From a virus (Duplodnaviria > Caudoviricetes), in IMG/VR virus record IMGVR_UViG_3300010885_080481: a stretch of 64,000 nt of DNA; one strand, written 5' to 3'. This document shows, piece after piece, positions 470 to 29,174 of the stretch; the stretch's first letter is position 1; each line of letters starts with the position of its first letter. The notes below the pieces were generated by a model. That model ran no database searches. It was not told where the DNA came from and saw only the letters and a program-made list of their open reading frames with translations. The position numbers were made by a program, and so were the translations under genes.

Positions 470-510
470 GGGCTGTGCAAAGTTCGGACCCGAAAGGGTA
501 TACTAGAACC

Positions 511-675
511 ATGGAAACGGTCTTCGCCAAGGTCCCCCAGCACCTCTACCTCTTCCGGTCCGCCTGCGGGACCAAGTTCATCGACCGGGACGGTCGGGGC
601 TGGAAGCTCCACACCCCGACCCTCGGGAAGTGGACCTACTTCCCCACCTTCAAGGCCTGCCTCACGGCGGCCTGA
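511..675 (+). CDS. early hypothetical protein (METVFAKVP...)
   Basis: ATG after promoter copy 2. Confidence 0.75.
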   Translation: METVFAKVPQHLYLFRSACGTKFIDRDGRGWKLHTPTLGKWTYFPTFKACLTAA

Positions 676-726
676 AAAGTCGCGGAGGCGGTGCAAAGTC
701 AACCCTAAAAGAGGTAAGGTAGAACC

Positions 727-1452
727 ATGCCGATCATCAAGACGAGCTACGACGCCAACGTCGGCCCCGAGACCCTCTTCCGTGGTCGGGTGCTCAAGAT
801 CGAGAAGACCACGGAGACCCGCAACTGGTCGGACACGTTGGACTACAGCGACCACCGCTCCACGGAGTGCACCTGGGCCCTCGTCTACCTCGGGACCCAC
901 GGCGTGCCGCCCCGCGGTTGGAACGGCCGGGTGATCGCCCACATCAAGGACCCGTTCTGGGAGACGCCCCGGGACCTGACGGTCGACGAGCGGTTCGCCT
1001 GGATGGACTGCACCAACCTCTTTGGGGACCGGCACGGTTACCTGCTCAAGGCCGAGGTCGACACGGTGGGCGACCTTCTCATCGCCGGTGGCACGGAGAA
1101 CATCTACGACCAGCTCGCCGCCTGGGAGGCCCACCACAAGGCCGCCCTCGAGGCCCGAGTCGCGGAGCATGCCGCAAAGGAGGCCATCCGCCTCGCCGCC
1201 GAGAAGGCCGCGACCGAGAAGAATGCCGCCCGTGCTGCCAAGGCTGCCGAGAAGGATGCCGTCCTCAAGGCCGCCGCTGAAGGTCACCTTGCCCGGATCC
1301 CCACCAAGGGCACTCAGGTCACGGTGGATGGGTTCACAGGGAAGGTCTTCTGGATCGGGGTCTCCAAGTACCGTGGGTTCTGGTCCGCCCGGGCCGGCAT
1401 CAAGGACTCCAGGGGCAACGTGCAGTGGGTTCCGGCGGACCGGTTCTCCTGA
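727..1452 (+). CDS. early hypothetical protein with Ala/Lys/Glu coiled coil and SH3-like C-terminus
   Basis: 241 aa ORF after promoter copy 3; helical AEK-rich middle; beta-rich C-terminus GTQVTVDGFTGKVFWIG. Confidence 0.8.
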   Translation: MPIIKTSYDANVGPETLFRGRVLKIEKTTETRNWSDTLDYSDHRSTECTWALVYLGTHGVPPRGWNGRVIAHIKDPFWETPRDLTVDERFAWMDCTNLFGDRHGYLLKAEVDTVGDLLIAGGTENIYDQLAAWEAHHKAALEARVAEHAAKEAIRLAAEKAATEKNAARAAKAAEKDAVLKAAAEGHLARIPTKGTQVTVDGFTGKVFWIGVSKYRGFWSARAGIKDSRGNVQWVPADRFS

Positions 1453-1455
1453 CCT

Positions 1456-1536
1456 AGGATGACACAGGAGAGGCTTCCATAAATCCGGGAGGGGTAACCA
1501 AGGCCCGACTCCCCAAAGCCTCTCCTGGGTCATCCT
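1456..1536 (+). ncRNA. structured intergenic RNA element (21-bp stem with inner hairpin)
   Basis: 1456-1476 pairs with 1516-1536 at 20 of 21 positions; inner GGGAG/CTCCC and GGG/CCC stems. Confidence 0.55.
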
Positions 1537-1599
1537 CGAGACCTCGAAAAAGTTCACAGGACAGTGCAAAGTTCCACCTTGAAGTGATAAGTTAGAACC

Positions 1600-1689
1600 A
1601 TGGACAAGCACACCGCCTCGGACATCCTCGGAGCCCTCATCACGGTCGCCTCCACGGCCTTCGCCGGCTACTGGCTCCTCGCCCTCTGA
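1600..1689 (+). CDS. 29-aa membrane mini-protein (MDKHTASDILGALITVASTAFAGYWLLAL)
   Basis: ATG exactly 36 nt after promoter copy 4; hydrophobic; too short for the ORF track. Confidence 0.7.
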   Translation: MDKHTASDILGALITVASTAFAGYWLLAL

Positions 1690-1719
1690 CCCTTCACTCC
1701 CAACCACAAGGACGACACC

Positions 1720-1905
1720 ATGAACGACTCGATCACCATCAAGACCTGCAAGTGCGACGAGTGTGACCATACGGCACCTGGTGTGGAGTACACATCCCTC
1801 GGGTCCCCGGTTCTCTTCGTCTGCAAGCACTGCGAGCCCAAAGGGTTCGAGAAGCAGGCCCGACAGGATATCGATTCCTGGTTGGCCGGCGGTTCGTTCC
1901 GCTGA
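1720..1905 (+). CDS. small Cys-rich (putative Zn-binding) protein
   Basis: CKCDEC...CKHC motifs; AAGGA upstream. Confidence 0.7.
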   Translation: MNDSITIKTCKCDECDHTAPGVEYTSLGSPVLFVCKHCEPKGFEKQARQDIDSWLAGGSFR

Positions 1906-1946
1906 TCCCGGTGCAAAGTCAACCCTGAAAGAGTTAAGGTAGAACC

Positions 1947-2327
1947 ATGGCAACTCGCTCCTACATCGGCAAGCTCCTCAACGACGGCTCCATCACCGGC
2001 ATCTACTGCCACTTCGACGGTTACCCGGAGGGCGTCGGTGCCACCCTCAAGGAGCACTACACGGATCCGGTCAAGGTGGATGCCCTCCTCGCCCTCGGCT
2101 CCATCTCGTCCCTCGGGGCGGAGATCGGGGAACAACACGAGTTCGAGGATCGATCCCGCGACTGCGTCACGGCCTGCCACCGGGACCGTGGCGAACGCCT
2201 TGAGGCGCCGACCGTCTACCGGAACATCGACGAACTTCGCCGGAATGCCTTCAACGACCTCGGGGCTGAGTATGCCTACGTCTTCGTCAACGGGGAGTGG
2301 GCCACCACGGAGTTGGGTCCGGCGTGA
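1947..2327 (+). CDS. conserved phage hypothetical protein (YCHFDGYP family)
   Basis: After promoter copy 5; MxTRS.IG...IYCHxDGYPxGVG.xL..HY motif recognised as widespread in phage hypothetical proteins. Confidence 0.8.
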   Translation: MATRSYIGKLLNDGSITGIYCHFDGYPEGVGATLKEHYTDPVKVDALLALGSISSLGAEIGEQHEFEDRSRDCVTACHRDRGERLEAPTVYRNIDELRRNAFNDLGAEYAYVFVNGEWATTELGPA

Positions 2328-2557
2328 CCCTCGATGAGTTCCTCCGCAAGGCCCTGGAACCTCAACGTGCCACGAGACCGGGACAACGGTTCATCAACCT
2401 CCTCCACGAGGTGAAGCCCAGCCTCGCCTACAACCTGAAGAAGATCAACCTCGATCCGTACTACATGGATCAGCTCCTCCCCGCGGCCATCCAGTACGCC
2501 GTGGACAACTGGGACGCCTTCAGCCCAACCGACTACATCATAGGAGTCGATGAGTGA
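2324..2557 (+). CDS. hypothetical protein
   Basis: GTG start overlapping the upstream TGA (GTGA). Confidence 0.65.
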   Translation: MTLDEFLRKALEPQRATRPGQRFINLLHEVKPSLAYNLKKINLDPYYMDQLLPAAIQYAVDNWDAFSPTDYIIGVDE

Positions 2558-2621
2558 TGAAAGATACAAGAAATTCCCTCATCTAGTGCAAAGTTCAACC
2601 GGGAAGTGATAGGGTAGAACC

Positions 2622-2843
2622 ATGGGTTACGAATCGACCACGTACGAATGCCGGGGTTGCGGGCGATACGGTGACGGAACCTGGGTGTCCCTGCCACCTG
2701 AGTGGTCACGCATCGAGCGGATCGACGGGCCGAACAGCATCTGTCCTGCCTGTGTTCACGATCGTCTCGAGGATGTTCTCAAGGATCTTCGCGAGGACGG
2801 TTACGAGCACGCCCACGTGGTGCAAAGTTCAACCGAGAAGTGA
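2622..2843 (+). CDS. small Zn-ribbon-like protein
   Basis: After promoter copy 6; CRGC...CPAC; 3' end overlaps promoter copy 7. Confidence 0.75.
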   Translation: MGYESTTYECRGCGRYGDGTWVSLPPEWSRIERIDGPNSICPACVHDRLEDVLKDLREDGYEHAHVVQSSTEK

Positions 2844-2855
2844 TAGGGTAGAACC

Positions 2856-3059
2856 ATGAAGAAGACGATCCCCCATGCGATCCCCCAGAGGCCGTGGCAG
2901 TCCTACCCCGGCGAGAACTTCGACCGCACGACCACCATGGCCCTCCAGATCGCGGACGAAGCTCGGGCCAATGGGCGGGTCGAACCGGCCCACGGCTACT
3001 CCCGAGGAGACTGGGAGACGGCTGAAGAACGTCTCGTCCGCAGTGCAAAGTTCGCCTGA
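2856..3059 (+). CDS. early hypothetical protein
   Basis: After promoter copy 7. Confidence 0.75.
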   Translation: MKKTIPHAIPQRPWQSYPGENFDRTTTMALQIADEARANGRVEPAHGYSRGDWETAEERLVRSAKFA

Positions 3060-3078
3060 GAAAGGGTATATTAGGACC

Positions 3079-3336
3079 ATGAAGAACGACATCACGGTGG
3101 GCGACCTCGTCGAAGAGGTGGGCACGGACTCCGGTTGGTGGGTGGTGACCGAGGTCTTCCGGAACACCCACCGCAAGTACATCGTCTGCGAGGATGCGGC
3201 GGGGCGACCGGTTCGCATGGTGACCGAGGTCTTCCGAAACACCCTCCGCGAGGGGTTCGCGGCGAAGCTGGTCCTTAAGGATCGACCGGACTGCGTCACC
3301 TTCGTCCCCATCGACCGGTTGGCCAAGGTCGGCTGA
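3079..3336 (+). CDS. early hypothetical protein with internal VTEVFRNT duplication
   Basis: After promoter copy 8. Confidence 0.75.
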   Translation: MKNDITVGDLVEEVGTDSGWWVVTEVFRNTHRKYIVCEDAAGRPVRMVTEVFRNTLREGFAAKLVLKDRPDCVTFVPIDRLAKVG

Positions 3337-3389
3337 GAAAAGTTCTCCCGGCGGTGCAAAGTTCCCAGCAGAAAGGATATACTAAGACC

Positions 3390-3563
3390 ATGAAGCTCAC
3401 CAAGAAGCAGGTCCTCGAGATGTTCCGCGAGTTCTGGACCGGGCACCCCGGTTCGTGGACGGAGAGCGAGAGGCGGGAAGCCTGGAACGACTTCACGGAT
3501 ATGTTGTGCAAGGATCGGCAGATCACGGAACGCCAGTACGAGACCTGGGCCAACCCGTTCTGA
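3390..3563 (+). CDS. early hypothetical protein (MKLTKKQV...W.NPF)
   Basis: After promoter copy 9. Confidence 0.75.
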   Translation: MKLTKKQVLEMFREFWTGHPGSWTESERREAWNDFTDMLCKDRQITERQYETWANPF

Positions 3564-3626
3564 GCCGGGGACAAAAAGTTCCCCAGCCCGGTGCAAAGTT
3601 CCCAGCAGAAAGTGTATACTGAGACC

Positions 3627-3854
3627 ATGAAGAACGCACGCTTCAACGAGGAGATGGCGATCATCAACGGCCGCGGCACCTGGAGCGCCGACGGCTCCAC
3701 CCTCACCCTGGAGAACGGGCGGATCCTCACGAAGGACGAGCAGTGGTCGGAGCGTGACCGCCTCCTGTCCGCCCGTCTGGCGAAGCCTGCCAAGCCGACC
3801 TCCCCTGCGGTCAAGCGGGAACGAGCCCGTCGGATGGCAACCGGCTGGTACTGA
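3627..3854 (+). CDS. early hypothetical protein
   Basis: After promoter copy 10. Confidence 0.75.
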   Translation: MKNARFNEEMAIINGRGTWSADGSTLTLENGRILTKDEQWSERDRLLSARLAKPAKPTSPAVKRERARRMATGWY

Positions 3855-3920
3855 GCCGGGGGACGAAAAAAGATCCTCCAGCCCGTGCAAAGTTCAACCT
3901 CGAAAGGGTATACTAGGACC

Positions 3921-4097
3921 ATGAAGACCACGGTAGAGGTAGTCCAGGCCCGCGATGTTCTCCGGCTCACCTTATCCCTCGAGGAAGCCAAGCGGATCCG
4001 TGCGGCCCTCTCGGACCTGGACGGGGAAGACTTAGACGCCTATGGCGGGATCCTTGAGGTCCTGCGGAAGGCCATTCCCCAACAATGGGCTCGGTGA
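3921..4097 (+). CDS. early hypothetical protein
   Basis: After promoter copy 11. Confidence 0.75.
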   Translation: MKTTVEVVQARDVLRLTLSLEEAKRIRAALSDLDGEDLDAYGGILEVLRKAIPQQWAR

Positions 4098-4150
4098 GAG
4101 CAGTTCTCCCGGCGGTGCAAAGTTCAACGAGGAAAGGATATACTAGGACC

Positions 4151-4327
4151 ATGAAGAACGAAGCCATCTACGAGATCGCGTACTTCACCCCCAAGGGCAA
4201 GCCCGGCCGGAAGCAGGTCCGCCAGTCGCGAATCGTCAAGGAAGCTCAGAAGCTGTACGACGCCGGGTACCACGGCATCCAGGTCTCCTACTACCCACTG
4301 ATCGCCGGCGTCGATCCGATCATCTGA
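4151..4327 (+). CDS. early hypothetical protein
   Basis: After promoter copy 12. Confidence 0.75.
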   Translation: MKNEAIYEIAYFTPKGKPGRKQVRQSRIVKEAQKLYDAGYHGIQVSYYPLIAGVDPII

Positions 4328-4369
4328 CCTGCGGTGCAAAGTTCAACCTCGAAAGGATATACTAGGACC

Positions 4370-4729
4370 ATGAAGAACCCCGGCAAGTACGAGTCGACTC
4401 TCGCCACCACCCTCAAGTCCCTAGGTCTCGACCACCGCGCGGAGGACCCCAACTTCCTGGAACTCCGCGAGGCGGCCTACAAGATCGACGACCTCCGTGC
4501 TGAACTGGAAGGTTGCTCCCGGCGTCGCGCGGACCGACTCACGTCCTTCGCCAATGATGTGGCCTCGGGCCGGATCCACATGACACCCCCGACGGGCAGC
4601 TCCCTCGTCGATGACATCGCGGAGAAGACCACCATCCTCAACGAGAAGTCCTCATCCTTCCCCACCCTCCTCCGCCTCGTCGCCGGACCAACCGCACCGA
4701 AGGAGTTCTTCGCGATCCTCCGCACCTGA
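4370..4729 (+). CDS. early hypothetical protein
   Basis: After promoter copy 13. Confidence 0.75.
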   Translation: MKNPGKYESTLATTLKSLGLDHRAEDPNFLELREAAYKIDDLRAELEGCSRRRADRLTSFANDVASGRIHMTPPTGSSLVDDIAEKTTILNEKSSSFPTLLRLVAGPTAPKEFFAILRT

Positions 4730-11902: not shown

Positions 11903-12097
11903 ATGAATTCTTTACCAAAAATAGGCGAAAGAATAGTGGTTTACGGTTTGCCACAAGAAGCAAAGGTAGCATCCGTTCAATGGGATACTACCTTTTTTGA
12001 TTGGATTATCGGTTTAGATTGGGGAAATTACGGAACTTCAAAAGTTAAGTTACATGATGAATTTAAGATTTGGTATAGAATTTCAACGGTAAATTAG
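11903..12097 (+). CDS. hypothetical protein
   Basis: ATG 11903 (MNSLPKIGERIVV...); the ORF-track start lies inside the tRNA. Confidence 0.6.
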   Translation: MNSLPKIGERIVVYGLPQEAKVASVQWDTTFFDWIIGLDWGNYGTSKVKLHDEFKIWYRISTVN

Positions 12098-12435
12098 TCA
12101 GATTCTACTTTTTTGAGAACATTCATCACTTTAATAGTGTCTTGTTCAGAAGCATCAATCAATTTTGCAACCATATCACCGAATATCTGATTGTCGTTAG
12201 AATTTCTTTTTCCTAAACGAAGATTCGTCACGGCTGTTTTCAATTTTGCTCCATCGAGGCCAAGGGTTTTTGCAATTTTATTGACGTCAAGCGTACCTTC
12301 AGCTCCAGTGGCAGTTTGAGTACCAGACTTTGCAGGTTTAGATCCTGCGTTAGCAGGATCTGTAGGGGCGGCCTCGTTCAATTTTAGTAATTCTTTTTTA
12401 ATGATTTGTCGAAGTTGCGATTCTGTGATTTTCAT
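12094..12435 (-). CDS. hypothetical protein with capsid-targeting-like N-terminus
   Basis: MKITESQLRQIIKKELLKLNEA leader. Confidence 0.75.
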   Translation of the reverse strand: MKITESQLRQIIKKELLKLNEAAPTDPANAGSKPAKSGTQTATGAEGTLDVNKIAKTLGLDGAKLKTAVTNLRLGKRNSNDNQIFGDMVAKLIDASEQDTIKVMNVLKKVESD

Positions 12436-18399: not shown

Positions 18400-18660
18400 C
18401 TATTCTGCCGCCATGGGAAATTCTGCATGTGCAGACATATCTACGGCCCATTTGTCACATGCTTCATGCGCCTTGTTTACCAAATCATTGCAAGCTTCTT
18501 CTAACGTCATACCACTTGTGAGAGCAGCATCTAGGTAGCTCATCATTGCTGCAATCAATTCATCAGAGTTTACTTCGACAGATTCGACCAATTCTTTCTT
18601 GTTGATGCTAAGATATTCCTGTTTTATTAAATTGCGCAGTTGAGATGGTGATAATTTCAT
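18400..18660 (-). CDS. hypothetical protein with capsid-targeting-like N-terminus
   Basis: MKLSPSQLRNLIKQEY leader; ATAATTA immediately upstream. Confidence 0.7.
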   Translation of the reverse strand: MKLSPSQLRNLIKQEYLSINKKELVESVEVNSDELIAAMMSYLDAALTSGMTLEEACNDLVNKAHEACDKWAVDMSAHAEFPMAAE

Positions 18661-18744
18661 AGAGTTAATTATCATGTTCTCAAAGCAACATTTCGTAAAA
18701 TTGTATAAAACGTTATAAAGTAGAGACAATACTTAGCTGTAAGT

Positions 18745-19980
18745 ATGAAAAAAATTTTGCTAGAAAAGTTCATTAAAAATTATTTGCTGTTAGAAGCCAA
18801 GAATTCTGGTTTGTTGAGGCTAATTGATGAACTTTACGTCATGAATGACAAACTCAACTTGAGTGAAGAAGAAAAATTTAAAAAATTGAAAAATGAAATA
18901 TCGATGTATTTGGGGCCGAAAGCTCCTGCAGGATCATCTAGAATAGTTTTTCCTCTTGATTCAGGCAGCGTCATTAAGTTAGCTCTTAATCCTGCAGGAT
19001 TTGCGCAAAATGGTACTGAGGCCATGGCAGGATCCGATGAGTCAGTCTCTGCTATCATAAACCCTGTCATCGCAAAGAGCAACGTCGTAGAATACGACGG
19101 GTTTTTTTGGATCGTTCAAGAGAAGGTATTACCGCTTAATGACGATTTGACTGGTTCTAAAAACTGGTCTTATTTTCAGAACCTTTTGATGAAAGCTACC
19201 AGAGGTGCTCATTCAATCACGCCTGATAAAGGGGAGTTTTCTACAGCTGTTGATGTGGAAAAAACAAGAGTAGAAATTCCGCTCGGCGGGGCAAAAAAAC
19301 TTCAGGCACTGAAACCTGTGAATACGAAGGAAGTAGAAGAGGAAAAAGCTAGAAAGCAGATCTCAGATGCTTTTAAAAAAGTTGGACCTGAATTTTTTGA
19401 ATCTTTCAGGGAATTCTTAAACAAGTACTCAGGATCTAGAACAGGCGATCTTTTTAAACCTGACTCTTGGGGAATGACGTCTGACGGTAGGCTGAAGTTG
19501 ATAGATTATGGATACACCAAAGGAATATCCGACAAGTTCTACGATAGAGGTTACGTGTTGGATCAAACAGAGATAAAAAAGAGGCTCGATGCGGCGCAAC
19601 AACGAAGAGAAGAAAATATAGACTCAACTGTAGCCGATAATGAGTATATGCTTATGAACGTCAACAACGTCCCTCCCTTGATGTCTCTGTTGCTTCTAAT
19701 AAAGGGCGTCGTGATTGGTCTTCCACGCAGAGTTGAAGAGTTTGAGGTCGGAAAAACGCTTTCTAATCTCACAGAAACTGAAAAAACTTCAGTGGCTAGT
19801 TTGATCAGGAATAAGCAAGAAATTATCGAAAAAATTATTAATCAAGTATCAAACACGCAATTAAAAAATAAATTGTATGATGAACTGGATGAAATCCTGT
19901 TGTCAACAGGATCTTTAGGTAAAACTGAATCTTTGATCAGACTTCTAGTAAAAGAAAGCCTCCGCGCAAGAATGAGATAA
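18745..19980 (+). CDS. protein kinase-like fold protein A
   Basis: AGSSRIVF loop, VIKLA Lys, QNGTE, WIVQEKV hinge, GDLFKPDSWG, LIDYG. Confidence 0.7.
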   Translation: MKKILLEKFIKNYLLLEAKNSGLLRLIDELYVMNDKLNLSEEEKFKKLKNEISMYLGPKAPAGSSRIVFPLDSGSVIKLALNPAGFAQNGTEAMAGSDESVSAIINPVIAKSNVVEYDGFFWIVQEKVLPLNDDLTGSKNWSYFQNLLMKATRGAHSITPDKGEFSTAVDVEKTRVEIPLGGAKKLQALKPVNTKEVEEEKARKQISDAFKKVGPEFFESFREFLNKYSGSRTGDLFKPDSWGMTSDGRLKLIDYGYTKGISDKFYDRGYVLDQTEIKKRLDAAQQRREENIDSTVADNEYMLMNVNNVPPLMSLLLLIKGVVIGLPRRVEEFEVGKTLSNLTETEKTSVASLIRNKQEIIEKIINQVSNTQLKNKLYDELDEILLSTGSLGKTESLIRLLVKESLRARMR

Positions 19981-19983
19981 AAA

Positions 19984-20820
19984 TCAACCTTTACCTGACT
20001 GCTTCGGTTCCCATTTTTTCACGTCTCTACGCAACGCTGAAGCTGCATCAAAAAATATCACTTCTCCCTCACCGCCGCGGACGCGTCGAATTCCCATGTT
20101 GTCAGGTTTGAAGTCAACCATCCCTAATTTGTAATGCGATAAAATACCTTTTACGAATCTTTGAAACCAATCAGGAGATAGTCGGTACCTCTCTTCAATT
20201 GACTTCAATTCTGCTTCTGGTAATAAAGGGATCAATTCGTTTGCTAGTTGTTGCGGATTTCTATCAGCAAATTTAACAGGAGGCTGTCCTGTAGACTTGG
20301 CACGTTTTTGTTCTTGCCCGACGATCGTTGCGATACCATCTGAGATGGATCTCCATAACAATTTCCACTCAGGATCCTCACCTAGAGAGCTTGCTTCTGA
20401 CACCTTCTCGACAATAGACCACCCTATCGGTCCTGCGTTGCTTGTAAATACGCCTGTGTCTAATACGTTAGGTAGACCTGAACCAATTTCGCTTCCTGAA
20501 TATAAGACATCTTCAATCTCAGATGCTCGAGGAGTTCCTGGTTCTAGTTTTAGAACTAGATTTCTTCCCAACGAGAACGCTGTACCTTGTCGACCTGATC
20601 CCAAATACTTGACGTTACCTTTAGACAGAATTCTGTTCCAATCTACAAAGTTATCAGGTTCTGCTGAAAAAGCGTCAACGTCTAATCCCATGCGCTTAAA
20701 GACTTTGGATTTCATTAATTCATCTCTTATCATACCCATTTGCAATTCAGATAATTCTTGAGATATGTTTAATGATTCTACTAGAATATTTTTAATGAAT
20801 TCTCTAAGTAATAACGACAT
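19984..20820 (-). CDS. protein kinase-like fold protein B (Ser/Thr type)
   Basis: YLGSGRQG Gly-loop, VLKLE, SIVEKV, VDFKPDNMG catalytic loop, IFFDA. Confidence 0.78.
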   Translation of the reverse strand: MSLLLREFIKNILVESLNISQELSELQMGMIRDELMKSKVFKRMGLDVDAFSAEPDNFVDWNRILSKGNVKYLGSGRQGTAFSLGRNLVLKLEPGTPRASEIEDVLYSGSEIGSGLPNVLDTGVFTSNAGPIGWSIVEKVSEASSLGEDPEWKLLWRSISDGIATIVGQEQKRAKSTGQPPVKFADRNPQQLANELIPLLPEAELKSIEERYRLSPDWFQRFVKGILSHYKLGMVDFKPDNMGIRRVRGGEGEVIFFDAASALRRDVKKWEPKQSGKG

Positions 20821-20862
20821 GCCAATTACACACTAAGTATTACAACAACTTAAATTAAAAAC

Positions 20863-20890
20863 GAAAAAGGCCTCGAAAGAGGCCTTTTTC
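20863..20890. terminator. bidirectional intrinsic terminator
   Basis: GAAAAAGGCCTC-GAAA-GAGGCCTTTTTC. Confidence 0.85.
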
Positions 20891-20913: not shown

Positions 20914-21100
20914 TCAGATGATGTTCATGTCAATGACCGTGCCGATCGTGCCTCTTGACCGTAGCCCAGTCTTTGGAAGGGATCGCAGAGTTGACTCTTC
21001 CATCGCCCACTGATGCTGAGATATGCCCTTACGAGATCCGGAGGTGGCCCACGCCACGGGGCCCTTCTTGTACTCCGACTCCACGGACCCGAGGATGCAT
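20914..21100 (-). pseudogene. decayed duplicate of the major capsid gene 3' end
   Basis: Encodes ...GTVIDMNII*; collinear near-exact blocks shared with 23383-23488. Confidence 0.65.
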
Positions 21101-21342
21101 CGTACTGCGGTAGGTGCATCGTGTCGTCTTTGCCTTTTTCGAGGTCCGTGGCCTTTAAGTATCACACGGATCGCAGGAATATTCGCGAATATTGTCCCCA
21201 GGTTTCCCGCATCGCGTATTTCCGACCATTTCTCTGGCGGAACTCTATGCTGCTCCTCGAACAACACGTCTCTTTCCTGCTCATCAATCCGTGGACCACC
21301 ACATCAATGTTGAGGGCAATATATATATGCATGAACGCCGAC

Positions 21343-21471
21343 ATGAAGTTATTGAGGACATACCTAGCCAACGTCATCAGAGAGGTGGCAGAGGTACGGA
21401 CCAAAACCGACGTGGTGGCAAGAGCTTACTTCTTGAATTTCTTACGTGTGTTCGCAAGGTCGATGCCATAA
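21343..21471 (+). CDS. 42-aa protein with capsid-targeting-like N-terminus
   Basis: MKLLRTYLANVIREVAEV; ATATATATA upstream. Confidence 0.45.
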   Translation: MKLLRTYLANVIREVAEVRTKTDVVARAYFLNFLRVFARSMP

Positions 21472-22388
21472 CGTTTGGACAGAGCACCTGACTTGAGACG
21501 AAGAATGTTATGCCAAGACATCAGCTTCTTAGCAAGATCATCCGAAACATAATCTTTTCGACCCAGCTTACCCAACTCTGGGTCACCCGCCATCGTTTTA
21601 ATAAACCTCTTCACCACAGCGTTGACAAACTGTATGGGTGTGACAGGCGCATCTCCTTGGCCTTCGTATGATCCTCGACCGACGACATTCTTCATGGCAT
21701 TGAGGAAGCCATCCTGGACGTTAGCAGGCAGGGCAGCCGGCTCGTTTCCTCCAATCTCATCAGCCATGTCTGGAAAATACTGCGTGATGAGCAACTCATC
21801 AAACTGAGAACCATAACGGTTGAAGAAATCCTTCACCACATCCATCACAGGCTTGGGCTTCTTGTCCAATCTGTTACCGATGGAAACTGTGATATTGGAG
21901 TCGTCTCCTCCCACTCTCTTCGCTTGATCCAGACCCGACTGGACCCAATAGACCATGATCTCATAGAGGTTGTCGTTCATCTCTGGGCGGTCTGGATCAC
22001 GACCCTGAAACTTGAAGCGCTTGTAGGCACCCTTCATCGTGGCCTCGTGAAGCAGGGCATGGATGACGTCACCGCTGAAAGCCTCATCGATATAGTCGTC
22101 GGCGCACAGGGTCAGCAGGCCCGACTGTCCCTTGCTAAGGAATCTTTTTGTGTAGAAACCACCGGTCTCAAAGATTTCATCAAACTTTTGCACTGCAAAA
22201 GCCGTGAATTCAGCATCCATGGCCTTCTCGTCATCTGTCAACGGTGGACGAAGAACACCATAGTGACCGAAAGGTGTGACGTCGTCCATCTTTTTGGTAC
22301 CGGAGGCGAACTCAGGTGTGGACTTGGAGATCTCAGAGACGAGAACCTCGTGAATCAAGGACCGAAGTTGAGAGAGTCGTATCTTCAT
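21426..22388 (-). CDS. hypothetical protein with capsid-targeting-like N-terminus
   Basis: MKIRLSQLRSLIHEVLVSE; ATATTTA upstream; 320 aa. Confidence 0.78.
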   Translation of the reverse strand: MKIRLSQLRSLIHEVLVSEISKSTPEFASGTKKMDDVTPFGHYGVLRPPLTDDEKAMDAEFTAFAVQKFDEIFETGGFYTKRFLSKGQSGLLTLCADDYIDEAFSGDVIHALLHEATMKGAYKRFKFQGRDPDRPEMNDNLYEIMVYWVQSGLDQAKRVGGDDSNITVSIGNRLDKKPKPVMDVVKDFFNRYGSQFDELLITQYFPDMADEIGGNEPAALPANVQDGFLNAMKNVVGRGSYEGQGDAPVTPIQFVNAVVKRFIKTMAGDPELGKLGRKDYVSDDLAKKLMSWHNILRLKSGALSKRYGIDLANTRKKFKK

Positions 22389-22481: not shown

Positions 22482-23297
22482 CTAGGGCTGCTCCTCGAAC
22501 AACACCTCGAACCGCCAACCCTTCTTCTCACAGAATCGGGCCGCAGCCTCCCACTTGGCCTCATCAATCTCGTCGTGGCGACCCTTCACCTCGTAGAGGG
22601 TACGGTCTTCTGGTGCGTAGAAGTCTGGGACGTAGGTCCGCTGGGAGCCGTCTGGATGGGTATAGGGGATGGTGATGCCATGTGACTTGGTGACATGGTA
22701 ACCTTTGGTAATTGCCGCCTCAAGGAACGACGTTTCCCAGGAAGAATGCATGAACTCCTCCTGTCCGGTGAACGGATTGAACTTCCACTCAGTCTTGAAA
22801 GGAGCATGGGGACCGATGATGCCGGCCTCGAGGAGCTTGACAGCCCGAGCGGAGGCTTCTTTGCGGAGCAGAGAGGCGAAGGGTGAAGAGGACCAGAAGC
22901 GAGCCATTGCTTCTGACTTTTTTCTTTGAACTTCTGGTGTTAGTGTTGCTTGGTTCATTAGTCTACCTTTTTTAAAAGCAACATCTGGGTGTTTACTCAT
23001 CCATCTTTTCATGTTTTCAGAGTTTTTCTTGCCTATCTTCGCTTTCTCCTCATCAGATTTGATTCTACCATGTGCGTGGTGACCGTGGATAAATCGTGTA
23101 AAATCCTTTAGGGAAACATTCCAATTGTTTTTTCCATTGCATCCACATGAGCACAAGGGTATGCAGTTATTGTATTTCCATTTCAGCACATATTCTTGAG
23201 ATGACATCTTGTGGCATCTTAAGTGTCTAAAAACAAATTCCTTTGATTCAAATTCCTGTTCGCACTCTTTACAAAAATTATCTATTTCACTTGACAT
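22482..23297 (-). CDS. free-standing homing-type endonuclease: C2H2/CGC Zn motifs, NUMOD3-like segment, TnsA-like PD-(D/E)XK domain
   Basis: CKEC..H...H, CSCGC, SSWE, YVPDFY, YEVKG, KWEAAARFC. Confidence 0.8.
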   Translation of the reverse strand: MSSEIDNFCKECEQEFESKEFVFRHLRCHKMSSQEYVLKWKYNNCIPLCSCGCNGKNNWNVSLKDFTRFIHGHHAHGRIKSDEEKAKIGKKNSENMKRWMSKHPDVAFKKGRLMNQATLTPEVQRKKSEAMARFWSSSPFASLLRKEASARAVKLLEAGIIGPHAPFKTEWKFNPFTGQEEFMHSSWETSFLEAAITKGYHVTKSHGITIPYTHPDGSQRTYVPDFYAPEDRTLYEVKGRHDEIDEAKWEAAARFCEKKGWRFEVLFEEQP

Positions 23298-23398: not shown

Positions 23399-25288
23399 TC
23401 AAATTATATTCATATCCAAAACTGTGACCGTGCCGTAGAAGTCCGAGCGGACCATCTTCTTACCGTAGCGGGTCATCACGCCCTTACGCGGTGTGAAGTC
23501 CTCTGGTGCGAAGATTGTTGGTGTCACGATGAGTGGAACGTATGGTGCGTATACGTAGCCTGTCTCGAGGTAGCTGCCACCCTTGTAGCCAACGAGGATC
23601 TTGTTACGTGGGAAGTAAGGATCCTTGTAGACTGTGAAGCGGTTGCTGACCGTGCCGATTGCCTCTGCACCGATCGTGAATGGTGAGCCAACCTGGCCTT
23701 CTCCATCGATCGAGTACTTGGGCTTGTAGAGAACTGAACTCTCGAGGATGGTTGCAACGTCTGGGCTTGTGACCATGAAGTTTGCAGATCCGCGGAGTGT
23801 CTTGCGGTGGATTGTGTTTGCCACGTCGATGACTGTCTCGACGAGGGTCTCGTACCACTCGCGAACCGTACCCGTGAATTGTGGTCCGATCGAGAGGCTA
23901 GATGCGAGAGTGACTGGCGAGCCTGTTGTCTTGTTGACGAAGCGACCTGGTGCGCGGCTCCAATAGAAGTTGGCGCCGTTGGCCTGTGTGACGAGGTCGT
24001 TGAGGATCTCGCGGTCGATCTCAAGGGCGATCTGCTCTGAGAGGATCGAGGTTAGCTCAACCTCAGCGTCCATGCTGTGGTAGGCGTTGAGGTCCTGTGC
24101 GAGCTCTGGAGACCAGCGGGCACGGAGCTTGCGGGTCGTTGCAGTGATTGCAATTGACTCAATCTTGATGTCGATTTCTGGAATTGCAGGCTGCGGTGTT
24201 GCACCGAAATCAGATTCGAATGATGGAACGGTAAGTGTTGCTCCGCTTGCGCTATCAACTGTGAGACCTGCCTTGAGAGCGAATGAGAAGCGACCGTTTG
24301 AAGCTGCGCTAACCGCGAGGCTTGCACCATCTGCACCCTTGACTGCCATCTGAACGTGTGTACCGTTGAGTGGATCTGGTGTGAATGATACTGCGCCACC
24401 GTTGTACACGAAGTTTCCGCGCTTGTTGAGGCGGCGGAGGTTGAGTACGCCAGAACCACCTTGGAATGCTTCACCCCATGCTGTCGCGTTTGTTACACCA
24501 CCGAAGAGAGCGATGCTATCGACTGCAAGTAGGTCGGCTGCTGCGTTGGCCGTCGTGAAGACCGATGCAGAGACGTAGAGGAAAGAAACGTCGCCGGTGT
24601 TGTTTGTGACGAAGTTTTCAACCTGTGGATCGAAGTCAAGGTAACGAGCGTTGCTACCGCTGAAGTCAGTTGCGGCGGCGAGCTCGTGGCCTGCTAACCA
24701 CGTATCAGCAGCTGAACCTGCCCAGGCGCCGAGAGCGACTGCAGCTGTTGTCATTGCAGCTGATGTTGTCGATCCTGTGACCCTGGAGTAGCTTGTGCCG
24801 ACGAGGTCATACATACCACCTGCTGCTAGAGATCCGCTCTGGACTCCTTTGCCTGTGGGGTTGTTGTAGATAGACTGTCCTCTTGTGAAGACAGCGTCAC
24901 CAGATGTTGGTGTTCCTACGTTCGTGCCGTATGTGTAATCAAGATAGAAGATGAGTCCTGAGGGGAGGCTCATTGGCTGGATCGAAACGAGCTCGTTTGA
25001 AACGAGGCCGCCGAACACTCTACGAACGATTGGGAATGCAATGTTTGTGAATCCCTGGATCTGTCCGCTTGATGTAACGTTACCGCCACCTGTTGAGAGG
25101 CTGTTGCTCTCTTTGAGTACCTGTGCTGCCTGGTTCTCGAGGAGCTGTGCCATTACTTCGCGGCGTGTTCCATCGAGGCCGCGGAGGAGGCCTGTGCGGC
25201 TCCATTTCTCTGTAAGACGGGCGCGCTCAGCGCCGACGTGACGCTCCTTGATGCCCTGTGCAAGCTGATCAATTGTAAAAGATTTCAT
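23399..25288 (-). CDS. major capsid protein (T4 gp23-like)
   Basis: KWSRTGLL.GL, LLENQA, FPIVRRVF..L, VSIQPM.LPSGLIFYLDY, IPEIDI, TRKLRARWSPELAQDL.AYH, EIDREIL, YAPYVPL, PRKGVMTRYG. Confidence 0.97.
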   Translation of the reverse strand: MKSFTIDQLAQGIKERHVGAERARLTEKWSRTGLLRGLDGTRREVMAQLLENQAAQVLKESNSLSTGGGNVTSSGQIQGFTNIAFPIVRRVFGGLVSNELVSIQPMSLPSGLIFYLDYTYGTNVGTPTSGDAVFTRGQSIYNNPTGKGVQSGSLAAGGMYDLVGTSYSRVTGSTTSAAMTTAAVALGAWAGSAADTWLAGHELAAATDFSGSNARYLDFDPQVENFVTNNTGDVSFLYVSASVFTTANAAADLLAVDSIALFGGVTNATAWGEAFQGGSGVLNLRRLNKRGNFVYNGGAVSFTPDPLNGTHVQMAVKGADGASLAVSAASNGRFSFALKAGLTVDSASGATLTVPSFESDFGATPQPAIPEIDIKIESIAITATTRKLRARWSPELAQDLNAYHSMDAEVELTSILSEQIALEIDREILNDLVTQANGANFYWSRAPGRFVNKTTGSPVTLASSLSIGPQFTGTVREWYETLVETVIDVANTIHRKTLRGSANFMVTSPDVATILESSVLYKPKYSIDGEGQVGSPFTIGAEAIGTVSNRFTVYKDPYFPRNKILVGYKGGSYLETGYVYAPYVPLIVTPTIFAPEDFTPRKGVMTRYGKKMVRSDFYGTVTVLDMNII

Positions 25289-25339: not shown

Positions 25340-27241
25340 TCACTTAGCTATGCCTGCGAGTTTTGCCCAACGTTCGGACTCAAAACCTTCGTTGAGTGTT
25401 TGTGCTGATGCCGAACGTGTCGCCTGTGAAGAAGATCCAAGAACGCGGCCTTCTGTCACAGTCTTACGAGGCGTTGCCAATGTCTTGGCAAGGCTTTCGT
25501 ATACAAGCTTCACTTCACGAAGCGTCTTTGCTTCATCCAACTGCTCAATAACCTGCGATTTCTGACGCGCGGTGAGAGCTTCTGACTGTAGCAATTTGTT
25601 TGTGAATATGAGCTTAGCGTTGAGCAGATTCGTTTCTGCCAACTTGTTGCGGAGCTGTGAATCGCCTGAGCTCGCGACAGGTTTTGCGACGTTATTTGAA
25701 CGACGCTCTGTGCGGAGGGCCTCTGAGAGGTCTCCTGAAAGTTTGTTAAAACGTTTGACTGATTCATTGTAACGTTTTGCAAAGTTTGTGTATGCTTGTT
25801 TGAAGTTAACGCTAGATGCGTTGATCTCTTTTCGTTCAGCAAGCGTCTTTGCTTTTGAGAACTTTGTTTTTGCTGATTCATAGAGGCTTGCGGCGGTTCT
25901 AGCCTTGTTTTTTAATACCTCTTGAAGTTTAAGTTCTTTAGCCATGTTACGACGAAGAGATTCACACTTAGCTGCTTCATCCTTCTCTTCCTCTTTTTCA
26001 TTCATGCCTGGTGAATCGCCCTGCTTCTTTGTCTGCGAATAATCTTCGCGGCGCTTCATGGCTGCAGGTGATGAATCTGTTCTGTCTCCTGCTTCTTCCA
26101 TATCAAGCTCTAAAGCAAGTTCATCAAGTTCGTTTGCATAAGACTCGTCTGCTTTTTCTGAATCATCTTCAGCTTCTTCATCAGAACCTTTTGTCTCTAA
26201 TGCTTCGTCAGTTTCTGAAAGAGTTACATCTAGTGGTTCTCCTTCAGAATCAGCATCGCCAAAATCATCAAACTCATCAGAGCCTGGTTTTGTTCCGTCG
26301 ACAGAAGGAACTTTTTCTTCTCTAAGAGTTCTCATACGAGCAATTTCTCGACGAAGCATATTTTCATCGATTTCGACAATAACATTATCAGAAAGCTTAC
26401 GAGATTCCATCTTAGAATCCATGCTTCCTTCAAGGTCAAGATCTTCCTCGCCTGATTCTTCTTCCTCGTCACCTTCCTCGCCACCTTCTGCGCCGCCTTC
26501 TGCGTCGCCGAGATCGAGATCTTCCTCATCTGATTCTTCTTCCTCACCACCTTCTTCACTCTCTTCGCCTCCGGAGACCAAATTGACTCCAAGGCTTTCG
26601 AGATCGATGTCGTCAGGAAGGCCTGTCAATTCCAGGCTGATTGTTTCTTCATTTAAACGACTATTTCTCTTCTTCATTTTAATCTCCTGAAGCTTTTCAA
26701 TTTTTTTCAAACAATTTTGTAATTTAAGATTATATCCTAGTTTTTGTGTAGGACTATCAGCATTTTCGTTAATAAAATCATACATTGTGCTGACCAATGT
26801 TGATAGTTCATTTACCTTGTTGGTAAAAATCTCAGAGTTTTTTTCGTTCAATTCGATAGAAAGCAGCTTATTCGCTAGTTCAGAAACATAGCGTAACTTT
26901 CTTTCGACTGCGGGTAATACTTTGCCACCAAACTCAAAATTTTCTTCTACGCTAGAATCTTCTTTAGCATCAGCTTCTTCTGCTGGTTCTTCTAACGCCT
27001 CGACAACTTCTTCTTCCACGGCTTCAGGTACGTGAGATTTGTTGTCTTCAGGTTCATCAGTTAAAATCTTATCGTCTTTTTCCTCGACTTCTTCAGCTGA
27101 TTCACCTAACAGTTCTTTTTCAATCAGCTCACGAATGCGAGGCGCGACGGCTTCGATAACTGCTCTTTTAGCGTTATCTTCTGCAATTTCTTTTAACTTT
27201 TTAACATCTGCTATTGCTTCTTCGTAGAGCTGCTTTGACAT
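25340..27241 (-). CDS. prohead core/scaffolding protein (gp22-like)
   Basis: Very acidic coiled-coil protein directly upstream of capsid gene; NLLNAKL.FTN, W.KLAGI end. Confidence 0.85.
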   Translation of the reverse strand: MSKQLYEEAIADVKKLKEIAEDNAKRAVIEAVAPRIRELIEKELLGESAEEVEEKDDKILTDEPEDNKSHVPEAVEEEVVEALEEPAEEADAKEDSSVEENFEFGGKVLPAVERKLRYVSELANKLLSIELNEKNSEIFTNKVNELSTLVSTMYDFINENADSPTQKLGYNLKLQNCLKKIEKLQEIKMKKRNSRLNEETISLELTGLPDDIDLESLGVNLVSGGEESEEGGEEEESDEEDLDLGDAEGGAEGGEEGDEEEESGEEDLDLEGSMDSKMESRKLSDNVIVEIDENMLRREIARMRTLREEKVPSVDGTKPGSDEFDDFGDADSEGEPLDVTLSETDEALETKGSDEEAEDDSEKADESYANELDELALELDMEEAGDRTDSSPAAMKRREDYSQTKKQGDSPGMNEKEEEKDEAAKCESLRRNMAKELKLQEVLKNKARTAASLYESAKTKFSKAKTLAERKEINASSVNFKQAYTNFAKRYNESVKRFNKLSGDLSEALRTERRSNNVAKPVASSGDSQLRNKLAETNLLNAKLIFTNKLLQSEALTARQKSQVIEQLDEAKTLREVKLVYESLAKTLATPRKTVTEGRVLGSSSQATRSASAQTLNEGFESERWAKLAGIAK

Positions 27242-27794: not shown

Positions 27795-28034
27795 TCACTT
27801 TTTGCGAAGTAAAGTCATTTTTAATTCGCGTATTTTTTCTAAGCGCTTGGTCAATCTAGATTCTTCTAGCCCAAGTGCCTTATAATAATTAAACTGATTC
27901 TCTAAAGAATCTGCAAATTCATCAGCATCAACTTCATCTGCTTCTTTAGCAGCATCTTTTGTGCTCTTTTCGGCTTTAAACTTTGCCATTTCTTCAAGAA
28001 CGATTTTTTTGAGTAAAGATGAAGTTAATTTCAT
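27795..28034 (-). CDS. small head-module protein with capsid-targeting-like leader
   Basis: MKLTSSLLKKIVLEE. Confidence 0.7.
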   Translation of the reverse strand: MKLTSSLLKKIVLEEMAKFKAEKSTKDAAKEADEVDADEFADSLENQFNYYKALGLEESRLTKRLEKIRELKMTLLRKK

Positions 28035-28565: not shown

Positions 28566-29174
28566 TCAAGTTTTAGAAACTAATATATCGTTTATTATTC
28601 TATTAATTCTATCAGATTGATCGAATATAGTTCTTAATTCGGCTGGATTTAAAGACTTTCCTTCTGCCATCATGAACGCGCCAGGAGTTGAAGGTTCTGA
28701 GACGTAATCCCAACATATTAGTTGGAAATCGTCTTGCACGACTTGATAATCTCCTTGTTTCTTTGTAGATCCAACGCCTCTAGAAGAGATTCCTAATTTT
28801 ACTCCGCTTTCGACTAAAGATTGCAATATCTTACCAGAAGGAGTGTCTAGTATCTCTACAGAGCCATAAACAACATCACCTTCTAGGTACGCTTCTTTAA
28901 CAATGTGAGAAACATTCTTTAGATTTACGACAGAAGAATCAGGATGATCTAACTCGCCGAGAGCTCTATTTTCTGCTATAAATTTTTGATAGTTCCTTAT
29001 TTCTCTATCTAGTATGTTTCTAGGATAGATTCTGCCATTCTGATTAAGAGTGTCAGATTTCTGTAAAATTCCTCGCATGACAATCTTCCCGTTATTTTTT
29101 TCACGAGACTCTTTTATCATGTCAGTTGTGTAATCGAAAATTTCGTATGAATTAAGTAATTTTAATTCAGACAT
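28566..29174 (-). CDS. prohead protease (T4 gp21-like)
   Basis: NQNGRIYP, ALGELDHP, NVSH, LDTPSG, GISSRGVGS, D.VSEPS. Confidence 0.95.
   Translation of the reverse strand: MSELKLLNSYEIFDYTTDMIKESREKNNGKIVMRGILQKSDTLNQNGRIYPRNILDREIRNYQKFIAENRALGELDHPDSSVVNLKNVSHIVKEAYLEGDVVYGSVEILDTPSGKILQSLVESGVKLGISSRGVGSTKKQGDYQVVQDDFQLICWDYVSEPSTPGAFMMAEGKSLNPAELRTIFDQSDRINRIINDILVSKT

Follow-up and report, generated by a model that had tools for sequence, protein, structure and literature searches.

Kinase A and kinase B are kinase-fold proteins whose convergent genes lie just past the major capsid gene in an uncultured jumbo phage of the T4-like type, and each protein begins with a short amphipathic leader that resembles the capsid-targeting signals of T4. 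On balance, we lean toward the reading that A and B are a packaged, cleaved, and injected kinase-fold pair. This variant joins two known kinds of phage protein, T4 capsid-targeted cargo and phage kinases. The window is the whole stretch of DNA that was analysed, 64,000 nucleotides of IMG/VR record IMGVR_UViG_3300010885_080481. The initial annotation had described convergent reading frames with kinase motifs, a common leader, an ATACTTA sequence ahead of each, and stop codons 3 nt apart, and every one of these is present as described. The genes lie tail to tail, with three bases between the stop codons (19981–19983). The locus and the head genes beside it are as follows.

18745..19980, plus strand: kinase A ORF, 411 aa, with a leader, an atypical kinase-like core, and a C-terminal helical region
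19984..20820, minus strand: kinase B ORF, 278 aa, with a leader, a helical segment, and a minimal kinase core
20863..20890, minus strand: intrinsic-terminator-like hairpin (12-bp stem, then a T run) at the end of the preceding minus-strand unit, immediately ahead of B
23399..25288, minus strand: major capsid protein, Gp23 family (Pfam Gp23, 1.8e-77)
28566..29174, minus strand: prohead protease, T4 gp21 family (Pfam Peptidase_S77, 1.7e-26; phrog_207, 1.3e-50)

Together with a Pfam Portal_T4 match in the window (7e-71), the Gp23 and Peptidase_S77 genes indicate a T4-type head module, whose gp21-family protease gene is 8 kb from the kinase pair. In the window, kinase B follows Gp23 at a distance of one to three genes on its downstream side; in the phage contigs L002, L009, and L010, that distance is one or two genes. 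A is convergent on B in the window, L009, and L002. The strong terminator separates B from the capsid operon, and B must have its own promoter.

The motifs of kinase B fall within a short core.

20047..20625, minus strand: kinase B core, residues 66–258, with G74-x-G76-x-x-G79, K91, E138, D236, N241, and D258

The glycine loop reads G74-S-G-R-Q-G79 (GxGxxG), the β3 lysine lies in VLK91L, the catalytic loop is V-D236-F-K-P-D-N241, of the non-RD type, and the DFG-type aspartate is the last residue of F-F-D258. Among 55 sequences of the B family, G76, G79, K91, D236, N241, G243, and D258 are invariant. The five catalytic positions are likewise invariant in 28 very diverse representatives, which otherwise share about 20% identity, and this is hard to explain without catalysis. 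The AlphaFold model of B (pLDDT 83) has the kinase order of secondary structure, β1-β2-β3-αC-β4-β5-helices-catalytic loop-β7-β8-Asp. The top 50 of 48,161 PDB chains compared by VIA-align are all kinase-like folds, with Z of 6.0–7.6 (values of 5–7.6 are middling on VIA-align's own scale). A Foldseek search of the PDB gave APH(2'') and PknB at E of about 1e-4 and a probability of at least 0.99. The BFVD structural matches are phage kinases, T7-type among them, the AFDB cluster matches are mostly Ser/Thr kinase domains, and the Atlas clusters near B include T7-type kinases. The chain continues for 20 residues past the DFG-type Asp and then stops, so that the kinase C-lobe is absent. We suggest that B is probably an active phosphotransferase lacking the C-lobe.

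A profile search with B recovered at least 375 representative clusters (50% identity), 112 of them at E 1e-10 or better. The known members are all from uncultured phages, and three distant ones are on contigs too short for phage typing. More than half of the short members (57 of 99) terminate at x-F-D, that is, on the DFG Asp. The family also includes giant multidomain proteins of 728–2382 aa with several B-like domains, and across the wider family the catalytic loop is D-F-H-x-G-N. Pkinase, ABC1, or APH Pfam matches in three of eight long relatives fall on other tandem kinase domains, outside the B-like stretch, and provide no transitive link to B.

Kinase A has a kinase-like core of comparable layout.

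18907..19530, plus strand: kinase A kinase-like core, residues ~55–262, with GSSR at 63–66, K78, N82–A93, D235, K238, D240, S241, and D254-Y-G

Its motifs are G63-S-S-R66, VIK78L, D235-L-F-K-P-D-S241, and D254-Y-G. The invariant columns in 13 sequences are K78, the block N82–A93, D235, K238, D240, S241, and D254, and E92 within the block is likely the αC glutamate. A deviates from a canonical kinase at three points: the Asn position is an invariant Ser241, one extra residue is inserted into the catalytic loop, and the G-loop is degenerate and does not fit GxGxxG. Because the Asn has become Ser and most of the glycine loop has been lost, we class A, by its sequence, as an atypical enzyme or a pseudokinase, in agreement with what had been suspected of it. 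The AlphaFold model of A (pLDDT 71) is also kinase-like in the order of its secondary structure, and nearly all of the top 50 VIA-align matches are kinases (Z 4.8–6.8, again in the middling range). APH(2'') is top-ranked by Foldseek, as for B, and the nearest Atlas structures are viral clusters of 226 and 261 aa, which B matches as well by features. Overall, the structural matches of both AlphaFold models are almost all to kinase-like folds, and the kinase fold first proposed for both proteins is firm for B and moderate for A.

How are the two proteins related? When the profiles are trimmed to their cores, A and B align co-linearly through every motif over 169–177 columns. This profile link is weak, with an hhalign E of 0.004 in one comparison and a probability of 8%, and the trimming is needed for the co-linear match, since hhalign of the untrimmed profiles finds similarity only between a leader and a C-terminus, aligning the C-terminal helix of A to the N-terminal leader of B. 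From this alignment, A is a probable distant paralogue of B. A prediction of the A–B complex scored 0.00, which speaks neither for nor against binding.

Sequence searches place neither protein in a known kinase family. A and B have no Pfam match at E 1 or better, so no match to Pkinase (PF00069) or APH (PF01636), and single-sequence and profile searches against the PDB gave no kinase match. Weak matches to MecI, TetR, and factor VIII were dismissed as chance. No kinase family was found in PHROGs at E 0.1 or better; A matched only phrog_4301 (function unknown) and B matched none. When ten B-family members were searched against PHROGs, their kinase domain was matched by no family, and tblastn of A, B, and the family member P0055 against 50,697 GenBank phage records gave no matches. 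The protein kinase-like (PKL) fold, the β3 Lys, the catalytic-loop Asp, and the metal-binding Asp are present in both A and B, and GxGxxG and the catalytic-loop Asn in B alone. The features of eukaryotic-type protein kinases (the Pkinase profile, activation loop, APE, and αF–αI C-lobe) are absent, as are those of T7 gp0.7 (the PHROG 2828/Phage_T7_kinase profile and D-P-V), to which the resemblance is one of structural neighbourhood only. The APH profile and H-x-D-x-x-x-x-N are likewise absent, B reading G-M-V-D-F-K-P-D-N, without the His; the structural similarity to APH is real, yet it is common to all PKL folds. Of the features of T4-type cargo, those that can be read from sequence are present, namely the L/I-x-E leader, a gp21-family protease with a T4 head module, and the leader on unrelated proteins.

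In T4, gp21 cleaves its substrates after L/I-x-E, with Alt undergoing processing at its two ends (PMC9026906), and a 10-residue capsid-targeting sequence (CTS) directs cargo into the head (PMC8442874, PMC5694885). The leaders of A and B, and the other window ORFs that carry one, are as follows.

18745..18795, plus strand: kinase A leader, residues 1–17, amphipathic, with an LLLE end that places L-L-E17 before Ala18 (L/I-x-E site)
20776..20820, minus strand: kinase B leader, residues 1–15, amphipathic, with an ILVE end that places L-V-E15 before Ser16
19924..19977, plus strand: leader-like C-terminal helix of kinase A, residues 394–411, with V-K-E404 before Ser405
12094..12435, minus strand: 113-aa ORF with the leader pattern
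18403..18660, minus strand: 86-aa ORF adjoining kinase A, with the leader pattern
21426..22388, minus strand: leader-bearing 320-aa ORF, unrelated to kinases, with ATATTTA 6 nt upstream of its start
27795..28034, minus strand: leader-bearing 79-aa ORF of the head module, with orthologues in L009 and L010
28092..28529, minus strand: leader-bearing 145-aa ORF between the protease and scaffold genes, conserved in L002, L009, and L010
29167..30027, minus strand: ORF of 286 aa lying between the portal and protease genes, whose N-terminal leader is internal and has an LVE end

At least eight window ORFs, unrelated proteins among them, thus have the leader in common, and some of these lie inside the portal–protease–scaffold block; by its position, the 145-aa ORF is a candidate prohead-core protein. 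The leader helix pattern occurs in frame 10 times in 49 genes, and eight of these occurrences are in the first 15 residues (binomial P ~4e-10, for patterns defined post hoc from the same data). The end of the leader is conserved. A homologues with full N-termini keep LLxE, I9 and E15 of the B leader each reach 90% conservation or more among 30 close homologues, and E15 stays at that level across 55 diverse family members. The sequence [LIVF]-x-E is found within the first 22 residues of 82 of the 99 short family members, compared with 15–18 of 99 for interior control windows, and at P3 those sites have Leu 55 times and Ile 25 times. From phage to phage the leader sequence changes, but the kinase body is constant. 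On contig L004, for instance, four adjacent unrelated ORFs, including the kinase, have an MKLY..L.E-type leader that is unlike that of the window. A leader-bearing ORF of 370 aa in L001 proved to be no homologue of A or B. The capsid-targeting-like leader that the initial annotation saw on both proteins is thus borne out comparatively, by the conservation of E15, the N-terminal enrichment, contig L004, and the S77 protease. These comparisons support a leader that acts like a T4 capsid-targeting or propeptide signal. The leader-like C-terminal helix of A is kept in most A homologues and is a possible C-terminal propeptide.

An ATACTTA sequence precedes each of the two genes.

18729..18735, plus strand: ATACTTA element of kinase A, 9 nt before its ATG, without a subsequent Shine–Dalgarno sequence
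20834..20840, minus strand: ATACTTA element of kinase B, 13 nt before its ATG

Six of eight A and B orthologues have the pattern ATA[CT]TTA no more than 20 nt from the start codon, where the background expectation is 0.002 per stretch of that length; the eight come from four phage contigs and the window, of which the window and L009 are closely related, and the pattern was picked post hoc. Its placement before the A and B genes is not due to chance. It also occurs ahead of other leader-bearing genes, including the 320-aa ORF at 21426..22388, the 370-aa ORF of L001, and a 367-aa ORF of L010. We consider ATACTTA a candidate −10-like promoter element of leader-tagged cargo genes. As a window-wide motif, it was rejected, with seven copies against eight expected. 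The top enriched upstream 7-mer is AATACTT, with 5 occurrences against 0.49 expected, an excess that fails correction for the k-mers tested. A search for a T4-type late promoter (TATAAATA-type) found none recognisable, including ahead of B, so the late expression suggested in the initial annotation is a possibility rather than a result.

If the leader is a packaging signal, it would dock A and B onto the prohead core, as the T4 capsid-targeting sequence does. The gp21-type protease would then cut after Glu, releasing B after E15 and A after E17, and perhaps cutting A after E404 as well. The mature kinase would remain in the head and, like T4 Alt, pass into the cell together with the DNA, and there it would phosphorylate host targets ahead of any phage gene expression. 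We infer rather than observe docking, cleavage, packaging, and ejection, and likewise catalysis and the type of substrate. More tentatively, the B family may be an undescribed, large family of mini-kinases, each cut down to the metal-binding Asp, fitted with its phage's own leader, and preloaded in T4-like heads, that phosphorylate host defence or takeover targets from the moment of DNA entry, ahead of phage transcription. A and B may then cooperate as an active kinase and a degenerate pseudokinase partner.

Are the kinases packaged at all? They might instead be cytoplasmic proteins that act after their synthesis, like T7 gp0.7, with an N-terminal helix that serves, for example, in oligomerisation, membrane or nucleoid association, autoinhibition, or transient association with the prohead. 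B does have a transcription unit to itself, with a terminator ahead of it, and the characterised phage kinases that we found in the literature, T7K with its homologues and P1 Doc, are all expressed in the cell and none is virion-borne (PMC13645617). However, the conserved Glu at the leader end and the Leu or Ile at P3 fit the specificity of a protease in the same module, and the same leader is present on ORFs of the prohead-core gene block. The leader, furthermore, co-varies with the phage and not with the kinase body, and the kinase genes adjoin the capsid gene across lineages. We consider unpackaged kinases rather unlikely. Somewhat less likely still are small-molecule phosphotransferases of the APH, choline kinase, or ABC1 type, packaged or not, whose substrate would be a metabolite, a nucleotide signal, an antibiotic-like compound, or a sugar. 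The catalytic loop consensus of APH/ABC1-type kinases is D-L-H-x-G-N, which the loop of the wider B family resembles as much as it does protein kinases; APH(2'') heads the Foldseek ranking for both models, and the substrate-binding C-lobe of protein kinases is wholly absent. Against this, there is no Pfam APH match, B is without a His two residues ahead of the catalytic Asp, and its own loop, D-F-K-P-D-N, is spaced as in Ser/Thr protein kinases and shares their Lys. The VIA-align and AFDB matches are also mainly protein kinases, and T7-type phage kinases are among the structural neighbours.

It is also conceivable, but quite improbable, that the proteins are noncatalytic pseudokinases of the head interior or prohead core, with a structural or DNA-organising role as cargo. 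In A, the Asn is gone and little of the glycine loop is left, and the internal proteins of T4 are mostly nonenzymatic (PMC9026906). However, the invariance of the five catalytic positions in the B family despite ~20% identity is difficult to reconcile with a purely structural role, and in A itself the Lys and the two Asp residues are retained and the αC block is strictly invariant.

For the packaged and injected pair that we favour, the closest counterparts are T4 internal proteins I–III and Alt (CTS MKTYQEFIAE), which share the short amphipathic N-terminal L/I-x-E leader on otherwise unrelated proteins and a Peptidase_S77 prohead protease in a portal–protease–scaffold–Gp23 module. The candidate propeptides at both ends of kinase A are a further likeness to Alt, the paradigm for modification of host proteins by an entering phage enzyme (PMC9026906, PMC8442874, PMC5694885). 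The cargo differs, in that A and B have a kinase fold, whereas T4 packages an ADP-ribosyltransferase (Alt) or small basic proteins. The leader of A and B is also longer (15–17 residues) and of another sequence, and their genes adjoin the capsid gene.

T7K (gp0.7; PHROG 2828, Phage_T7_kinase) is likewise a compact phage kinase-like domain, and T7-type kinases are among the structural neighbours of B in BFVD and Atlas. It differs in having D-P-V where B has F-F-D and A has D-Y-G, and A and B are without a shut-off or DNA-binding C-terminal domain. T7K phosphorylates promiscuously and thereby disarms many bacterial defences, but it requires transcription and translation first (PMC13645617); its gene is expressed early and the protein is produced inside the cell, while A and B have a capsid-targeting-like leader. 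We suggest that promiscuous phosphorylation of the T7K kind, directed against host defences, is the most plausible functional model for A and B. A capsid-borne kinase, if this is correct, would act before defences that sense phage transcription or replication, and it would add phosphorylation to the ADP-ribosylation of the T4 Alt paradigm. The B family, with its at least 375 clusters and no GenBank phage or PHROG match in our searches, would be a sizeable unannotated enzyme class in phage "dark matter". Furthermore, the leader with L/I-x-E, the ATAYTTA element, and the lack of a Shine–Dalgarno sequence may serve as a rule to predict injected cargo in uncultured T4-like phages.

Kinases of polyvalent proteins have lost the C-terminal subdomain and kept the ATP-binding and phosphotransfer residues, and they are predicted to be phage-delivered (Iyer et al. 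2017, PMC5512222). They are reported mainly in Verrucomicrobia–Chlamydia and Bacteroidetes phages and prophages, on MuF-type polyvalent proteins (PMC5512222). B is similarly without the C-terminal subdomain, with its active site kept, and its family has giant multidomain members. By their description, the polyvalent-protein kinases have a conserved His…Asp pair with an insert in between, where B reads V-D-F-K-P-D-N without a His, and further signature residues that were not matched to B in this comparison, and their carrier is not a T4-type CTS. The minimal atypical kinases Rio1/Rio2 and Bud32 and the aminoglycoside phosphotransferases (APH), which are among the structural matches, are also small kinase-like folds that lack both the activation loop and the substrate-binding subdomains. 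No sequence similarity to any of them was found, and B is more truncated than Rio or Bud32, ending at or just after the DFG-type Asp. The B family, in which many chains end on the DFG Asp, is a natural example of how far truncation of a kinase fold can go.

Kinase A and kinase B, two convergent kinase-fold ORFs downstream of the major capsid gene, were both re-found in the window sequence where the initial annotation had placed them, with every motif quoted there. The stop codons separated by three bases, the ATACTTA upstream of both genes, and the shared amphipathic leader at the N-termini are also present.

18745..19980, plus strand: kinase A, 411 aa; G-S-S-R (63-66), V-I-K78-L, D235-L-F-K-P-D-S241, D254-Y-G
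19984..20820, minus strand: kinase B, 278 aa; G-S-G-R-Q-G (74-79), V-L-K91-L, V-D236-F-K-P-D-N241 (non-RD), F-F-D258
20890..20863, minus strand: strong terminator between a fragment ORF and kinase B

The window comes from a T4-like jumbo phage that is uncultured; Portal_T4, a prohead protease of the gp21 type (Peptidase_S77), and a capsid protein of the Gp23 family are arranged in it as in T4. A 206-kb contig also encodes protein A. After the capsid gene, the minus strand has a TnsA-like endonuclease ORF, a 320-aa leader-bearing ORF, the fragment ORF, the terminator, and kinase B, on which kinase A converges. Kinase B is three ORFs downstream of Gp23, and it is one or two genes downstream in the related contigs L002, L009, and L010. 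The convergence of A on B is also seen in L009, a close relative of the window (stops 1 nt apart), and in L002, with one small leader-bearing ORF between them. Pairing by equal nucleotide size suggests that two more short contigs (6207 and 2343 nt) also have an A and a B homologue each. A 117-aa ORF (20914-21267, minus strand) ends in ...DMNII, as does the capsid protein, and holds a DUF5824-like stretch (E 1e-4). This ORF and the TnsA-like ORF (22482-23297, minus strand; Tn7_TnsA-like_N, 4e-11), which separates the capsid gene from the next cargo gene, appear to be relics of mobile-element insertions at the capsid gene's 3' end. A kinase A homologue, P0048, has DUF5824 fused at its C-terminus.

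Neither protein has a Pfam match at E 1 or better, a match to any PHROG kinase family, or a PDB sequence match, searched singly or as a profile, and the sole PHROG match of kinase A is phrog_4301 (function unknown). By sequence, both are outside the Pkinase, APH, and T7K families. The AlphaFold model of kinase B (30 homologues; mean pLDDT 83, pTM 0.73) has its elements in the kinase order, β1-β2-β3 (K91)-αC-β4-β5-helices-catalytic loop (D236..N241)-β7-β8-D258. In a Foldseek-independent comparison with 48,161 PDB chains, its top 50 matches were all kinase-like, Mps1, ULK4, Rad53, YabT, Rio1, PKR, and APHs among them, with Z-scores of 6.0-7.6, a moderate range on which the tool cautions. Foldseek gave APH(2'') and PknB (E about 1e-4, probability 0.99 or more); phage kinases, including T7-type, were matched in BFVD, and Ser/Thr kinase domains predominate in AFDB clusters. 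The model of kinase A is weaker (pLDDT 71), and its PDB-chain matches are almost all kinases at similarly moderate Z-scores of 4.8-6.8; its Foldseek matches to APH, LicA, and MEK1 are no better than E 4e-3. The weight of the fold call comes from how uniform these lists are, and structure search bears out the kinase fold claimed, firmly for B and moderately for A.

Kinase B has 35 close metagenomic homologues, and its profile, run against 1.84 billion representatives, matched 375 clusters (112 with E of at most 1e-10). The sole invariant columns among 28 very diverse representatives are the G-loop Gly, the β3 Lys, the catalytic Asp, the Asn, and the DFG-type Asp, while G76, G79, K91, D236, N241, G243, and D258 are invariant in 55 short members. 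These invariant catalytic columns give the family, by conservation, the signature of an active phosphotransferase. Judged from the chain ends, the family is also drastically truncated: among the 99 members no longer than 330 aa, 57 end at x-F-D, the metal-binding Asp, and a further 34 have just a 3-30-residue tail past it (20 residues past D258 in kinase B). Since the kinase domain had no PHROG in any of 10 members scanned, and neither B nor family member P0055 had a tblastn match among 50,697 GenBank phage records, the family is, as far as we can see, undescribed. We regard this broad family of leader-tagged mini-kinases without a C-lobe as the most interesting result.

Kinase A has only about a dozen homologues, in which Lys78, the N82..A93 block, D235, K238, D240, S241, and D254-Y-G are invariant; the block, with E92, is the probable αC region. 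The core-to-core profile alignment of A with the B family is co-linear over 169-177 columns, through the G-loop, Lys, hinge (W-I-V..K vs W-x-I-x-E-K), pre-catalytic-loop helix, catalytic loop, and final Asp, but it is statistically weak (E 0.004 as one comparison, probability 8%). As an independent line, the Atlas structures nearest to A are viral clusters of 226 aa and 261 aa (TM by hit 0.63 and 0.56), which B also matches via language-model features. Our reading is that A and B are distant paralogues. Compared with B, A has Ser in place of Asn, one residue inserted past the catalytic Asp, and a degenerate glycine loop, in agreement with the earlier suspicion that it would be either an atypical kinase or a pseudokinase. 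The C-terminal region of A has a conserved hydrophobic stretch, P-P-L-M-S-L-L-L-L-I-K-G-V-V-I-G-L-P (within residues 306-327; 19660-19725), that may be part of the buried core or may interact with a membrane.

The amphipathic leaders end in L-L-E17 in A and L-V-E15 in B. A leader-helix pattern, chosen post hoc from the same data, occurs in 10 in-frame copies in the 49 window genes, 8 of them in residues 1-15 (P about 4e-10), and the carriers include ORFs within the portal-protease-scaffold block, where the prohead-core genes of T4 sit. Across 55 B-family sequences, conservation of E15 is 90% or higher; outside the close subgroup, the identity of their bodies to B is 21-33%. The first 22 residues contain [LIVF]-x-E in 82 of the 99 short family members, vs 15-18 of 99 in interior control windows, with Leu (55) or Ile (25) at P3. 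Most telling is that the leader varies by phage while the kinase body stays. In contig L004 (316-2986), four adjacent unrelated ORFs, including a mini-kinase that terminates exactly at F-F-D, all start MKLY(N/H/K)(I/L)(L/I)(F/Y)(E/I), whereas the window and its close relatives have leaders of the L-R-x-x-I-K type rather than this MKLY..L.E-like form. The proposal of a capsid-targeting-like leader thus holds on N-terminal enrichment, E15 conservation, and phage-specific leader change. In T4, gp21 cleaves after L/I-x-E, the 10-residue capsid targeting sequence (CTS) of internal proteins brings its own or any fused protein into the prohead, and both ends of Alt get trimmed (PMC9026906; PMC8442874; PMC5694885). 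The C-terminus of kinase A has a conserved leader-like helix with V-K-E404 that recalls the C-terminal propeptide of Alt. In L002 (7317-7988), a 223-aa NT5C-like protein encoded between Gp23 and the B homologue has a C-terminal leader-like helix, ...L-R-R-Y-I-R-S-F-I-T-E-T-T, so such helices may work at either terminus. The scaffold-like protein encoded upstream of Gp23 has the tail E-R-W-A-K-L-A-G-I-x-K (window 25340-25372; L002 5256; L010 4481), and three leader-bearing 306-356-aa proteins of L009 (11150, 12228, 13200) have the near-identical ending E-R-W-Q-(K/R)-L-A-G-(L/I)-I-K, which could be a second, C-terminal address copying the scaffold tail.

The ATACTTA is 9 nt before the ATG of A and 13 nt before that of B. 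It is not enriched across the whole window, but 6 of 8 A/B orthologues have ATA[CT]TTA, a motif likewise chosen post hoc, no more than 20 nt from the start, vs a background of 0.002, and leader-bearing genes follow most other gene-proximal copies. A and B have no Shine-Dalgarno, whereas the capsid and scaffold genes have one. We take the element to be a putative -10-like promoter or initiation signal of cargo genes, which would give very short 5' leaders; no T4-type late promoter was definable in the window. The ATACTTA of A forms one half of a perfect inverted repeat with 7-nt arms, ATACTTA-GCTG-TAAGTAT (18729-18746), whose second arm overlaps the ATG; the repeat might affect translation initiation. 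A 61% GC block (window 107-4393) contains 13 early-type promoter cassettes, GTGCAAAGTTC ... TATACT ... ATG, with 6 nt from the end of the -10 element to the start codon.

We lean, if only slightly, toward a mechanism in which A and B would dock on the prohead core via the leader, the S77 protease would cut it off, and the mature mini-kinases would remain in the head, go in with the DNA, and phosphorylate host targets, with B as the enzyme and A as an atypical enzyme or regulatory partner. Of the virion-kinase interpretation in the initial annotation, the kinase fold and the CTS-like leader stand; that the genes are late, that the proteins are packaged and injected, and that they target host proteins are inferences. 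Such a system would be like T4 Alt in its way of working but differ in chemistry, and like T7 gp0.7 (PMC13645617) in action but differ in delivery route. With the same fold but no packaging by way of the leader, A and B would be cytoplasmic kinases, which we think unlikely. We give somewhat less credence to their being small-molecule phosphotransferases, a reading favored by the resemblance of the D-F-H-x-G-N loop in the wider B family to APH or ABC1. That they are head proteins without catalysis, the invariant catalytic columns of B notwithstanding, seems quite improbable.

By description only, the system is also similar to kinases without a C-subdomain that have been predicted within polyvalent proteins (PMC5512222). 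The B family also holds a 370-425-aa subgroup (among P0098-P0193), with the kinase core in the C-terminal half, a distinct conserved N-terminal helix, h-h-K-L-A-x-x-F-E-x-h-A, and a short tail past (R/K)-Y-F-D-P. A few giants of 728-2382 aa may be polyvalent or multi-kinase effector proteins; six of seven (P0099, P0102, P0148, P0150, P0154, and P0159) have 3-5 B-like stretches and P0104 has one. P0099 additionally carries a peptidoglycan-binding domain, and in P0118 and P0159 the Pkinase or APH match falls in another tandem domain.
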